Of a stretch of DNA of 64,000 nt, positions 29,875-37,274 are shown one piece after another; the first letter of the stretch is position 1, and the number at the start of each line of letters is the position of its first letter. Under the pieces are notes generated by a model that ran no database searches, had not been told where the DNA came from, and was given only the letters and a program-made list of their open reading frames with translations. The stretch covers positions 34,979-98,978 of the forward strand of contig CAWIDL010000032.1 of the NCBI GenBank assembly GCA_963834795.1. The letters are read 5' to 3'. Origin of the DNA: an uncultured delta proteobacterium (GTDB taxonomy: Bacteria; Desulfobacterota; Desulfobaccia; Desulfobaccales; 0-14-0-80-60-11). A program made the position numbers and the translations under genes.

Positions 29875-29985
29875 GTCAGTTTTCAGCTTTTGGATTTTCG
29901 GTTTTGGGTTTTCGGTTTTTTATTAGCGGTCAGCTTTTGGGTTTTTGCTTTTAGCTGACTGCTGATCGCTGAGAGCTGACAGCTA
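29875..29985. repeat. Heptamer-periodic hairpin element (TCAGCNN / NGCTGAN arms, T-rich heptamer core)
   Basis: gtcagtt ttcagct tttggat tttcggt tttgggt...tagctga ctgctga tcgctga gagctga cagcta. Confidence 0.85.
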
Positions 29986-30057
29986 TTAGGGGAATTCTAT
30001 TCAGGTTTCCTGAAAATCCCCCGCCCCCCCCCTTGAAAAGGGGTAGAAGGGACACCA

Positions 30058-31836
30058 GTGTTCGATAACTTGGAAGGCTTAAACAGAACCCACTCCTGCG
30101 GAGAATTGCGCCTTGAGGACGCCGGTCGCGAAGTGGTGCTGATGGGCTGGGTGCAGCGGCGGCGGGACCACGGCGGCCTCATCTTCGTGGACTTGCGGGA
30201 CCGCCGCGGCCTGACCCAGGTGGTCTTCAATCCGGAGGTCAACCCGGATACCCATAACAAGGCCGGAGTGCTGCGGGACGAATTTGTTCTGGCGGTGCGT
30301 GGGGTGGTGAATCCGCGGCCCCCGGAAATGGTCAACCCCAATCTGCCCACCGGGGAGATCGAGGTCATGGTGAGCGAACTGCGCCTCCTGAACAGCGCCA
30401 AGACCCCCCCCTTCGAGTTGGAAGACTACCGGCTGGACATCTCCGAGACCCTGCGCCTGAAGTACCGCTACCTGGACCTGCGTCGGCCCAGCGTCATGAA
30501 GAACATCCTCTTCCGGCACCATGCCGCCCAGGTGGTGCGCCAGTTCCTCAATGGCCAGGGGTTCATCGAGGTAGAGACTCCCATCCTCACCAAGAGCACT
30601 CCGGAAGGAGCCCGGGACTACCTGGTGCCCAGCAGGGTGCAGCCGGGGCATTTCTTCGCCCTGCCCCAGTCGCCCCAGCTCTTCAAACAGCTCTTGATGA
30701 TGGGCGGGCTCGATCGCTATTATCAACTTTGCCGCTGCTTCCGGGATGAGGACCTGCGGGCCGACCGCCAGCCGGAGTTCACCCAGATCGATCTGGAAAT
30801 GGCCTTCATCACCGAGGCGGACGTCTACCAGGTGGTGGAGGGTATGATGGCCGCACTCTTTCGGGAGCTTTTGGGGGTCGAGGCGCCCCTGCCCTTCCCC
30901 CGCCTCACCTACCGGGAATGCCTGGACCGCTTTGGCCTGGACCGTCCGGACCTGCGATTCGGGCTGGAACTCCAGGACCTCACCGACCTGGTGCGGGACA
31001 CGCAGTTCCGCCAGTTCCGCGAGGTGGTGGAACAGGGCGGAGTGGTGAAAGCCCTGAACGGCCCGGGCCTCTCCAGGCTCAGCCGCAAGGAGTTGGACGA
31101 GATCATCGACCTGGCGGGGGTTTACGGGGCCCGAGGCCTGGCCTGGGTCAAGATCCAGAAAGACGGCTGGCAATCTCCCCTGGCCAAATATTTCCCGGAG
31201 TCCGTTAAGGACGCCGTCAACCTGCGCCTGGCAGCCCGGGAAGGGGACCTGATTCTCCTGGTGGCCGACGCCCCGCTGGCAGCCTGCACCGCCTTGGGGC
31301 AGGTGCGCCTGCACCTGGGGCAGAAAGAAGGGCTGATCCGGGAAGAAGTCCATCGCCTGGTGTGGGTCAGCGACTTCCCTTTGATGGAGTATGACGCCGG
31401 CCTGGGACGGTGGGCGCCCATGCACCATCCCTTCACCGCGCCCGTCGATGCAGATGTGCCGCTACTGGCCACCGATCCGGGACAGGTGCGGGCCCGGGCC
31501 TACGACCTGGTGCTGAATGGGGTAGAGATCGGCGGCGGCAGCATCCGCATCAATCGCCGGGATATCCAGCAGCAGGTCTTTCAGACCCTGGGCATCTCCC
31601 CGGTCGAGGCGGAAGAGAAATTCGGCTTCCTGCTGGAGGCCCTGGAATATGGGGCGCCGCCCCACGGAGGGGTGGCCTTCGGCTTCGACCGGCTGGTAGC
31701 TATCTTCTGCGGGGCCAAATCCATCCGGGAGGTGATCGCCTTTCCCAAGACCCAGAAGGCCGCCTGCCTGGTGACCAAAGCCCCGAGCCGGGTGGACCCG
31801 GAACAATTGCTGGAGCTGGGATTAAGGCTGGAATAA
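30058..31836 (+). CDS. aspS: Aspartate--tRNA ligase, probably non-discriminating Asp/Asn type
   Basis: RTHSCGEL, RRRDHGG (His typical of ND enzymes), STPEGARDYLVPSR, LPQSPQLFKQ, CFRDEDLRADRQPEFTQID, PPHGG, FPKTQ. Confidence 0.97.
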   Translation: MFDNLEGLNRTHSCGELRLEDAGREVVLMGWVQRRRDHGGLIFVDLRDRRGLTQVVFNPEVNPDTHNKAGVLRDEFVLAVRGVVNPRPPEMVNPNLPTGEIEVMVSELRLLNSAKTPPFELEDYRLDISETLRLKYRYLDLRRPSVMKNILFRHHAAQVVRQFLNGQGFIEVETPILTKSTPEGARDYLVPSRVQPGHFFALPQSPQLFKQLLMMGGLDRYYQLCRCFRDEDLRADRQPEFTQIDLEMAFITEADVYQVVEGMMAALFRELLGVEAPLPFPRLTYRECLDRFGLDRPDLRFGLELQDLTDLVRDTQFRQFREVVEQGGVVKALNGPGLSRLSRKELDEIIDLAGVYGARGLAWVKIQKDGWQSPLAKYFPESVKDAVNLRLAAREGDLILLVADAPLAACTALGQVRLHLGQKEGLIREEVHRLVWVSDFPLMEYDAGLGRWAPMHHPFTAPVDADVPLLATDPGQVRARAYDLVLNGVEIGGGSIRINRRDIQQQVFQTLGISPVEAEEKFGFLLEALEYGAPPHGGVAFGFDRLVAIFCGAKSIREVIAFPKTQKAACLVTKAPSRVDPEQLLELGLRLE

Positions 31837-32076
31837 GTCAGCTGTCAGCTATCAGCGATCAGCAGTCAGCTAAAGCAAAAACAAAAAACCAAAGCTGAAA
31901 AGCCGACAGCTGATGAATAATAGCAAATGTCAAGGCCGGCTGATATATTTGATGGGTATATCCACAAATGAAGGCACTAATTGAATTTACTTAAAAGCAC
32001 CCAAAACCCAAAAGCTGACAGCTGACAACTGAACGCTGTAGCTAAAAAAAGCTGAAAGCTGAAAGCTAACAGCTAA
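31837..32076. repeat. Two heptamer-periodic elements between aspS and Re-citrate synthase (31837-31915, 31995-32076)
   Basis: gtcagct gtcagct atcagcg atcagca gtcagct-A-rich-agctgaa...; aagctga cagctga caactga acgctgt...aagctga aagctga aagctaa. Confidence 0.85.
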
Positions 32077-32086
32077 GGATTAAATT

Positions 32087-36620: not shown

Positions 36621-36902
36621 ATTAGCTGTCAGCGATTAGCTTTCAGCTATCAGCTTTCGGGTTTTTGGTTTTTGGTTTTTGGTTTTTGCTTTTTGCTTTT
36701 TGCTTTTAAGCTATTGCCTTCCTTTGTGGATGGCCCGGCGGCCACAGGCCGCCCTATAAAATCCCCTAGCCCTACCGCTTATCGGGCGGGCTGTGCCCGC
36801 CGCCTTACTCTGCCCAATACTCATTAGTTGTGAGCGGTTTCAGCTTTAAGCTTTCAGATTTTTGCTTTAGCTGAGTGCTGATGGCTGATAGCTGACAGTT
36901 AT
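36621..36902. repeat. Heptamer-periodic elements at 36621-36714 and 36833-36902 plus REP-like palindromes
   Basis: tgtcagc gattagc tttcagc tatcagc ttt; (ggttttt)n (tttttgc)n; tagctga gtgctga tggctga tagctga cag. Confidence 0.85.
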
Positions 36903-37016
36903 TACGCCCGCCCCCCTGCCCTTTCGTGGCACAAGCCTTGCCCCCCCCATAAATTATCGTCACGCCATGGGCGGTTGAGCCCGGCCCTGCGACTGCGCTG
37001 AAAAAACCGAAAAAGG

Positions 37017-37098
37017 CGGTTTTCCGTTTTTCGTTTTCTGTGAAAATTAAAAGCAAATTCAAAGGCCCCTGAGCACGGACGGAAAACAGAAAACAGAT
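37017..37098. repeat. Dispersed ~80-bp element with (GTTTTCT)n/(AGAAAAC)n arms and TGTGAA..CAAA..TCA.AGGCCCC core; copies 39791-39877 and 52629-52700 (inverted)
   Basis: Three copies aligned by eye; core and arms conserved. Confidence 0.85.
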
Positions 37099-37182
37099 AG
37101 GGCGGCCCGTGGCCGCCACCCACGGGGCGACAGTGGCACAGGCTTCCAGCCTGTGATTGGGGCGCCCTGGCGATGGCGGCTG

Positions 37183-37274
37183 TCAGCTTACCGCGGTAAG
37201 CCGTCAGCCTTTGGATTTTATGGGTTTTTGTTTTTGCCTTTAGTTGACTGCTGACCGCTTACTGCTGATAGCTA
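37183..37274. repeat. Heptamer-periodic hairpin element
   Basis: ctgtcagc...cgtcagc ctttgga ttttatg ggttttt gtttttg ccttt agttga ctgctga ccgctta ctgctga tagcta. Confidence 0.8.

Follow-up and report, generated by a model that had tools for sequence, protein, structure and literature searches.

Heptamer-periodic palindromic elements at gene junctions of an uncultured Thermodesulfobacteriota lineage and their possible relation to PF05635 cassettes

Among the intergenic tandem repeats of prokaryotes, heptamers are reportedly the commonest, 'with no clear clue' to what they do (bioRxiv 10.1101/309039), and they are described as the dominant class of long simple sequence repeats, for which polymerase slippage has been proposed (Mrazek 2007, as relayed in PMC4679880 and PMC4692102). 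In cyanobacteria, the sequences termed short tandemly repeated repetitive (STRR) are intergenic 7-nt tandems that form hairpins between hupS and hupL (PMC2670836). Paired inverted heptamer arrays lie near gene ends in Xanthomonas (GGGAATC; PMC4692102) and in Geobacter metallireducens (the MTYCTGA 'class 3 sites' and GGACCGG x4; PMC2700814), and TAACTGA direct repeats, cross-phylum and unexplained, occur in Beggiatoaceae, cyanobacteria and Bacteroidetes (PMC4679880). The 23S rRNA intervening sequence (IVS) of Coxiella has GACAGAT heptamers where RNase III cleavage was mapped, a short way upstream of the S23p open reading frame (ORF), and IVSs have been discussed as selfish, horizontally moved and possibly mobile elements (PMC4990558). 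The subject here is a set of heptamer-periodic, mostly hairpin-forming elements in 64 kb of contig CAWIDL010000032.1 (the whole stretch analysed, hereafter the window, or W), in particular those between 29.8 and 37.4 kb. Judged by its nearest relatives, the source lineage is one of uncultured Thermodesulfobacteriota ('delta proteobacterium') metagenome-assembled genomes (MAGs); comparison loci carry L-numbers, the nearest species representative being L001 (OY969108.1), with a nucleotide identity of about 90% and, for the HMGL/Cache protein discussed below, an amino-acid identity of 91%.

The elements belong to a known, unexplained class of intergenic heptamer repeats and are new in this lineage. 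Self-match at lag 7 of at least 80% over 35 nt was found at 46 window positions, against 0 in 20 block shuffles, and periods that are multiples of neither 3 nor 7 did not rise above their shuffled controls. With gene positions taken from a curated map, non-coding DNA, 18.6% of the window, holds 24 of the 26 lag-7 arrays; arrays of period 4-6 are mostly coding and arrays of period 8-11 almost absent. The period-7 elements noticed in an earlier sequence-only reading of this DNA are thus real, and Tandem Repeats Finder reports period-7 arrays at each coordinate which that reading named. A sequencing artefact was rejected: assemblies of independent origin, some built from short and some from long reads and taken from NCBI, JGI and ENA, show the same architecture. 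The further proposal that the elements fill nearly every junction holds for the span from 29.8 to 37.4 kb, where all five junctions contain at least one element of 70-110 nt made from 7-nt units, but not for the window as a whole, in which, at the threshold applied, 13 gaps out of 36 have an array (some 15, or about 40%, if two degenerate arrays are included) and none of the six divergent gaps does. Within an element the 7-nt phase runs continuously through one arm, an A/T-rich core and the second arm. Elements start 0-11 nt past stop codons, their ends reach the Shine-Dalgarno sequence of the next gene, and five of the nine that were folded as RNA have z-scores of -4.2 to -5.9 relative to dinucleotide shuffles.

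Described systems share parts of this anatomy. The STRRs of heterocystous cyanobacteria, among them hairpins in the hupS-hupL gap and upstream of hoxW, are likewise tandem 7-nt repeats that are intergenic, multi-copy and of several unit types, and form hairpins between co-transcribed genes in a role that is unexplained (PMC2670836, PMC4692102). The window shows the intergenic heptanucleotide tandems, many dispersed copies and few unit types that define STRRs, with unit families recurring in the window and its relatives, so that the STRR comparison made earlier was apt, intergenic multi-copy heptamer hairpins being common to both. By contrast, the host is of another phylum, the units (TCAGCNN, GTTTTCN, TTCAAAG and others) are not those described for STRRs, and the inverted two-arm layout is the rule in the 7-kb span. 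The window arrays are also long simple sequence repeats (LSSRs) in the sense of Mrazek 2007, with a unit of 5-11 nt and a length greater than chance. The Xanthomonas and Geobacter arrays share with them inverted pairing at variable distance, a mostly intergenic position by the end of the upstream gene and a length that varies among close relatives; those studies regard the arrays as G-quadruplex formers or binding sites for a global regulator, and do not mention a polarity rule, a spacer analysis, S23p or intervening sequences. The TAACTGA repeats resemble the GCTGA arms of the window in their CTGA-core heptamer, intergenic position and termination a few nucleotides before start codons, but are nearly all direct and one-armed, with a single inverted pair reported in that genome (PMC4679880). 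Given the arrays described in cyanobacteria, Xanthomonas and Geobacter, inverted pairs included, the elements are not an unrecognised class, and nothing points to a telomerase-like mechanism for the templating process that had been suggested.

The TCAGC/GCTGA type is widespread. A pattern scan of metagenomes gave at least 120 loci, with GC contents of 0.32-0.72 among the matches listed, and nearly all of the listed matches fall within xGCTGAx arrays, which often have an xTCAGCx array immediately upstream. Among these same matches a TCAGC array is followed by a GCTGA array within 600 nt in 64 instances, the reverse order being seen three times and only at more than 400 nt. Since the TCAGC...GCTGA arrangement is its own reverse complement, it is uninformative as to strand; what the arms keep constant is their direction relative to the outside of the element. 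In 43 left arms found by lag-7 autocorrelation alone, the core pentamer departs from the consensus in 2-9% of units and the 2-nt spacer in 40-43%, and complementarity of spacers between arms is not beyond chance (0.414, with a null value of 0.419). With a conserved pentamer and spacers that do not covary, the stem is therefore a series of 5-bp helices split by 2x2 mismatches and able to pair in any register, and the refolding in several registers that had been proposed is plausible because the pentamer is the same in every unit of an arm. An interrupted stem of this sort is less reminiscent of a tight hairpin under selection than of a recognition-site array or a palindrome made imperfect on purpose. 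The possibility that all unit families place their substitutions at two adjacent positions was considered and set aside, the tendency being weak overall (0.53 against 0.50) and clear only in the TCAGC family.

One small gene family, PF05635, is associated with such arrays. In one relative, L053, the junction downstream of the gene for an HMGL-like synthase (L053 11842-12554) contains a 128-aa ORF between GGAAGCG and CGCTTCC arrays, the same junction in seven relatives holding a hairpin or array without an ORF. The ORF encodes a member of PF05635 ('four helix bundle / S23 ribosomal / 23S rRNA intervening-sequence'), the closest solved structure being that of Xanthomonas XCC0516 (PDB 2gsc). When ORFs within 2 kb of 120 listed metagenome arrays were clustered all against all, PF05635 was the only small family to recur, the remainder being large and ubiquitous, and in L111 and L166 the right arm itself encodes the PF05635 C terminus (...QKLTADR, then stop). 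Conversely, of the 20 PF05635 genes that were examined, drawn from several phyla, every one has heptamer arrays directly flanking it, in most cases as an inverted bracket. The sample includes eight genes from MAGs or metagenomes attributed to Syntrophobacteraceae, Acidobacteria, Anaerolineae and 'Tectomicrobia', and eight plasmid genes from Nostocales, Picosynechococcus, Pseudanabaena, Leptolyngbya and Gemmatirosa; besides L053, its loci include L201 (4915-5441), L211 (4966-5412), L216, L218, L219 (two genes), L221, L224 and the plasmids L227-L234. For seven loci with flanks of 4-5 kb, 19 arrays fall in the 2.9 kb beside PF05635 genes and 10 in the other 51 kb. The suggested check of gene families beside arrays thus bore out the four-helix-bundle genes; no HUH, nuclease or transposase gene recurs by the arrays.

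The heptamer unit tracks the protein subfamily. Genes for L053-like proteins have GGRAGCR/YGCTYCC units in three phyla and in unrelated genomic contexts, the Nostocales copies have AGTCAGG/CCTGACT units, and other PF05635 genes have TCAGTAG/CTGACTA, AGTGAGT/ATTCACT, AAAGCTA, GGAGATA or TCAGC/GCTGA. A tblastn search of 72,556 plasmids with the L053 protein gave 25 records, of which at least 21 are cyanobacterial; the classic hosts of STRRs hence also supply the bulk of plasmid PF05635 matches. In the literature consulted we found no publication tying PF05635 genes to heptamer arrays besides the Coxiella observation, though the link could be known elsewhere. Cassettes lie within defence-type operons, between co-directional genes: in CRISPR-Cas operons at cas10|cmr3 (L230, a Picosynechococcus plasmid) and cas6|cas4 (L231, a Pseudanabaena plasmid), and in DUF1156|DUF499 operons (L216, L224, L232).

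The anatomy of the 23S rRNA IVS, an inverted-repeat stem round a PF05635 ORF or round nothing, is also that of the L053, L201, L211 and L227-L234 cassettes, among others. The window elements form the stem and have no PF05635 ORF, and related loci include both full cassettes and ORF-less remnants. They differ from IVSs in location: IVSs occupy helices 9, 25 or 45 of 23S rRNA, whereas the window has no rRNA and all of its elements lie between protein-coding genes, so not in those helices. How an ORF-less array might arise is suggested by an aminotransferase|acetyltransferase junction in a Syntrophobacteraceae group, for which percentages give aminotransferase identity to L201. L201 itself (4900-5480) has a full PF05635 cassette; in L239 (84%) the arrays are shortened and the ORF between them is a pseudogene that has an internal deletion and stops prematurely; in L238 (88%) a 10-unit GGGGAGC array by itself spans the distance from stop codon to ATG; and the site is empty in L235 (90%), with 78 array-free nucleotides, and in L240 (83%) and L241 (76%), with gaps of 7 nt and 36 nt. 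If the series runs from the full cassette downwards, which is the direction we infer, ORF-less arrays can be the remains of a PF05635 cassette.

The interpretation we favour, tentatively and at somewhat less than an even chance, is that the window elements are ORF-less, IVS-like palindromic inserts, the arms of which change by 7-nt slippage, and that they are co-transcribed and are probable RNase III substrates. They would be the Thermodesulfobacteriota counterpart of the cyanobacterial STRR hairpins, and of the same 'bracket' type as flanks PF05635 genes and makes the stem of 23S rRNA intervening sequences. Arrays may come in with PF05635-type cassettes, or parasitise them, and may outlast loss of the ORF, lengthening and shortening by slipped-strand mispairing in 7-nt steps, with arms being copied between junctions. 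The arrays would be transcribed together with the flanking genes and, because every unit carries the same core, could pair, whatever the register, to give one long stem with interruptions; rRNA IVS stems have been shown experimentally in other bacteria to be cut by RNase III, and on that analogy such a stem is a plausible substrate for the enzyme. Cleavage there would cut or insulate cistrons, with a net effect on the host that is probably small and near neutral. That PF05635 is causally linked to the elements in this lineage, that their RNA is processed and that they are nearly neutral are inferences, as is the structure-specific protein or RNase signal that had been suggested for the elements, and the choice of period 7 is left unexplained.

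Several observations weigh against this interpretation. No PF05635 gene is present in the 64-kb window or in about 100 kb of its closest relatives (L001-L005, L075), and ORF-less elements far outnumber cassettes in the window and close relatives; the link in this lineage is therefore by analogy only. The decay series comes from one site and one unit family (GGGAGCR), its direction being taken from neighbour-gene identity and not from a tree. Neither target-site duplication nor sharp ends were seen at W/L001 differences or at the filled-versus-empty cassette site. The non-complementary spacers argue against selection for a tight stem, and several arrays either have one arm only or face an array that is not complementary to them. 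The sense strand folds better in 13 of 21 hairpins and the antisense strand in eight, which is not significant; G-U pairs number 94 against 57 in the same test, a difference driven by a few T/G-rich cores, and RNA-level selection was accordingly not accepted on the basis of wobble pairs or sense-strand folding.

A broader version of the proposal, which we regard as possible and on balance rather unlikely, is that bacterial intergenic heptamer arrays generally (STRRs, LSSRs, TAACTGA repeats and the window elements) are arms or remains of a mobile cassette centred on the Avd-like four-helix-bundle gene of PF05635, and that this cassette is the same entity as the 23S rRNA IVS. The unit would then be subfamily-specific because the protein binds or maintains its own arrays, and ORF-less hairpins would be non-autonomous or decayed copies.

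How the elements arise and change can be followed by comparing copies within the window and junctions between relatives. Four window copies of the TCAGC/GCTGA type (29921-29990, 31837-31915 reversed, 36838-36903 and 37196-37274) align at 70-81% identity, in an alignment that takes in the T-rich core and a terminal TAWTAGC/GCTAWTA motif, and three of the four have in common the spacer order CT, TC, GA or TA, CA. A second family, in which some 40 nt of conserved core (AAATTCAAAGGCCCC) separate a GTTTTCN arm from a CAGAAAA arm, has three window copies, at 37012-37100 (z -0.5), at 39789-39880 between a radical-SAM gene and a BadF/BcrA-type activase gene, and, in reverse orientation, at 52630-52700; their mean column identity is 76%, and the core, when sought in relatives, had no match among 80 loci. 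The shared cores and spacer order imply that copies were propagated within the genome rather than each grown in place, in agreement with what had been proposed from the window alone.

The span from 29.8 to 37.4 kb holds five housekeeping genes, co-directional and all on the + strand: hisS (28533-29825), aspS (30058-31836), the HMGL-like synthase gene with a C-terminal Cache domain (32087-33916), mcmL for the large subunit of methylmalonyl-CoA mutase (34421-36097) and mcmS for its B12-binding subunit (36205-36609). The hisS-aspS-HMGL synteny is kept in dozens of species, but heptamer arrays at these loci are found only in the close clade (L001-L005, L075, L050) and scattered others. At mcmL|mcmS, six of the seven genomes compared have a hairpin, made from one of two unrelated units: the window, L001 and L002 have TTCAAGG/CCTTGAA, and L003, L004 and L075 have GTGAGCA/TGCTCAC. 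L050 has a right-arm AGCTGAA array only. Downstream of the HMGL gene the unit is, depending on the genome, TCAGC, CAGTGRY, GTAAGCA, GTGAGCA, GGACRGA, GGTTTTC or GGAAGCG. At aspS|HMGL it is xTCAGCx in the window versus KCAGTGA in L001, where the array is paired with a non-complementary one, and no heptamer array is present in L004, L075 or L050. The hisS|aspS element occurs, among the genomes compared, in the window only, the gap being 29-35 nt in L075 and L050. It follows that period and architecture are kept as the unit changes, as proposed earlier. Loops also gather other short palindromic repeats, as in a 187-nt insert in the mcmL|mcmS loop of L001 and a similar one in L075.

Two features of the units themselves were noted. 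ATG or CAT occurs in one of 51 distinct heptamer units from the window and L001-L080, about 20% being expected, which suggests start-codon avoidance on both strands. A universal motif (CAG-N4, HutP-like) was rejected: CAG or CTG is present in 18 of the 51, a modest excess that does not exceed those of CAA, GAA, ACT and AAC.

Part of this turnover would be expected if the elements were neutral simple-sequence repeats produced by a polymerase slippage that prefers 7-nt steps, with no mobility, function or gene link, a view we consider unlikely. It accommodates the perfect tandem runs (CGGTTTT x3.6, GGTTTTT x4 and, in L001, CAGTGAG x5), the variation of unit number between orthologues, the standing of heptamers as the commonest intergenic tandem repeat in prokaryotes, and the finding that junction types in 46 metagenome cases (29 co-directional, 11 divergent, 6 convergent, from crude ORF calls) match the genomic background. 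The element downstream of the HMGL gene (33923-34026, orthologous to L001 11835-11925) is instructive, since W and L001 differ there in unit numbers by indels of 14 nt in the right arm and 30 nt in the left; the first is as slippage predicts, but the second is no multiple of 7, and the notion that all indels are such multiples was dropped. Nor does slippage alone predict inverted pairs with a 64:3 polarity, a constant pentamer with hypervariable spacers in one array, dispersed copies with a common core and spacer order, one unit over GC contents of 0.32 to 0.72, or the flanking of PF05635 genes in 20 of 20 cases.

Selected RNA structures, i.e. intercistronic or 3'-end stem-loops for mRNA stability, processing or translational coupling, in which the hairpin is kept while its sequence drifts, are in our estimate also an improbable explanation, albeit one with points in its favour. 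Elements stand between stop codon and ribosome-binding site within operons, even between the subunits of one enzyme; the mcmL|mcmS hairpin has been kept in six of seven genomes though both arms switched unit together; z-scores for folding go down to between -4 and -6; the window's six divergent gaps have no array; and the hupS-hupL STRR hairpin provides a precedent. By contrast, the spacers do not covary, there is no significant sense-strand bias, and some junctions have one-armed or non-complementary arrays. The elements are not needed at hisS|aspS or aspS|HMGL, because relatives lack room or an array there (a 29-35 nt gap in L075 and L050; no array in L004, L075 and L050). None of the heptamer hairpins qualifies as an intrinsic terminator (a GC-rich stem followed by a T run), the six terminator-like matches being fewer than the shuffle mean of 8.8, and Rfam 15 gave no match at E<0.9 in the span, its only matches in the window being a cobalamin riboswitch and a tRNA.

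The sites of the omega repressor of pSM19035 are runs of adjoining 7-bp heptads, in direct as well as inverted arrays, and the elements might similarly be iteron-like platforms of double-stranded DNA, to be read at one pentamer per 7 bp by a protein of the host or of plasmid type. The conserved pentamer, free 2-nt spacer and fixed relative orientation of the arrays do have the look of binding sites. This explanation nevertheless seems to us quite improbable, in that no candidate protein was identified, the arrays are within operons rather than at promoters (none in six divergent window gaps), and the many unrelated units per genome would demand many binders. Repetitive extragenic palindromes (REPs), their mosaic (BIME) and hairpin-forming paired (REPIN) arrangements, and transposable elements of the miniature inverted-repeat kind (MITEs) resemble the window elements as short intergenic palindromes, dispersed by copying and often nested, but the arms in the window are 7-nt iterations and not one fixed palindrome. 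Classical non-autonomous MITEs or REPINs moved by a transposase, or by a RAYT (an HUH Y1 enzyme), encoded elsewhere in the genome are hardly tenable, since, despite inverted arrays at their termini, with TAWTAGC...GCTAWTA as the end motif, copies at dispersed sites and insertions nested in their loops, the ends are fuzzy, there is no target-site duplication, and no transposase or RAYT gene was found among the window genes scanned with Pfam or recurs within 2 kb of the 120 listed metagenome arrays.

The eight elements originally named in the 29.8-37.4 kb span are all present, with two corrections to their description and one addition. The hisS|aspS element (29875-29990; dG -44.8, z -5.9) has TCAGY units, then in-phase GGTTTTN units and then a hairpin at 29921-29988 (TATTAGCGGTCAGCT ... 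AGCTGACAGCTATTA), the GCTGA right arm of which has five units. Directly past the aspS stop codon, 31837-31915 (z -5.6) runs from five xTCAGCx units through a core rich in A to a short GCTGA arm, and is a reverse-orientation copy of the dispersed TCAGC/GCTGA family. At 31995-32079 (z -2.8) are GCTGA-type right-arm arrays that reach the Shine-Dalgarno sequence in front of the HMGL/Cache gene. They do not make up a hairpin by themselves; within them, 32013-32038 is paired with the left arm 31846-31871 over a distance of 141 nt. The 33923-34026 hairpin (z -4.2) begins 6 nt past the HMGL stop codon and has downstream of it a promoter-like stretch that is conserved in L001, and the TTCAAAG/CTTTGAA hairpin at 36103-36186 (z -4.2) takes up the space from the mcmL stop codon to the ribosome-binding site of the B12-binding subunit. 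The element at 36621-36714 (z -2.4) is one-armed, having five TCAGC/TTAGC units, GGTTTTT x4 and GCTTTTT x3, ending AAGCTATTG, and no right arm. Two further TCAGC/GCTGA hairpins, at 36833-36900 (z -2.4) and, with a T-rich heptamer core, at 37183-37274 (z -4.2), are copies of the dispersed family. The list had missed 37012-37100 and its two GTTTTCN-family copies.

Outside the span, two of the arrays that had been described as one-armed have partners. That at 24203-24228 (GGTTTTC/GGTTTCG), 6 nt past the glyA stop codon, has a complementary CCGGAAACGGAAAA stretch at about 24440-24462, just before the nrdR start, and the one noted at 52481, a perfect CGGTTTT x3.6 array (52473-52513), lies about 160 nt to the left of a complementary AAAACCG/CAGAAAA array noted at 52676 (52675-52707). 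The others are AACCGAA x4.4 between DUF1385 and DUF72 genes (10097-10136); TAGGGGT x4.7, a G-rich array overlapping the stop codon of an acyl-CoA dehydrogenase gene (17080-17118), with a spacing like that of the G-quadruplex-forming GGGGAYT repeats described in Nostoc; AACCGAA/AACTGAA, ending 12 nt before the start of an ETF-alpha/ferredoxin gene (19980-20037); CAGTTGC x4.4, 12 nt past the priA stop codon (49770-49812); and GTTTCCG x3.6, about 60 nt downstream of the stop codon of a sigma-54 activator gene (57120-57156).

Long-range inverted pairs (370-600 nt apart) were considered as cassettes round a special gene and rejected, the enclosed genes being ordinary (ArfB-like, QueD, L11, NusG, Rpe); such pairs arise because successive junctions each hold arrays. 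On an unrelated GC-rich metagenome contig (L088 1969-3854), TGAGTGT/AACACTC arrays occupy successive junctions of the nusG-rplK region, so even core ribosomal-protein operons are filled with arrays in some genomes. Other short, GC-rich palindromic repeat families are present in the same window junctions as the heptamer elements, often in or beside them, namely GGCGGCC-N3-6-GGCCGCC, CTCTCCCCC...GGGGGAGAG, GGCACAGGC...GCCTGTG and GGCGGGTTTAAAACCCGCC (window 19930, 25066, 36737, 37101, 49886, 52456; 17231, 17281, 19085; 37135, 52551; 25108, 45704).

Further features of the window were recorded in passing. The priA gene lies in two overlapping frames, 47495-48745 (N-terminal 3'BD and DEAD domains) and 48397-49758 (Cys-rich and C-terminal domains), reflecting either a frameshift or an assembly error. 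Third-position GC is very low in the genes at 27324-28385 (- strand; 0.23), which encodes a RelA/SpoT domain, and 17482-18108 (+ strand; 0.34), which has no Pfam match, neighbouring genes having values of about 0.8; the site of the former has different content in L001, so both genes are likely foreign insertions. The cobalamin riboswitch (27055-27245, - strand, 80.5 bits) is upstream of a minus-strand radical-SAM/SPASM gene (25160-26557). In the leader of the mutase operon (34162-34378), 216 nt without heptamer periodicity are missing in L001, both flanks aligning at 90-93%.

The window provides a dense and clean example of heptamer arrays in a lineage for which they had no earlier description, and the arrays account for long 'empty' junctions and spurious small ORFs in MAGs. 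What is new here is the fixed polarity of the arms, the conserved pentamer with a free spacer and no arm-to-arm covariation, and the consistent physical link to PF05635 (S23p) genes together with a series from cassette to bare array. The measured constraints and the PF05635 link make an old question testable, including in culturable Nostoc, Xanthomonas and Geobacter, which have both features. If an origin in PF05635 cassettes were true, a repeat class unexplained since 1990 would be explained, and a very large orphan protein family would be given a function.

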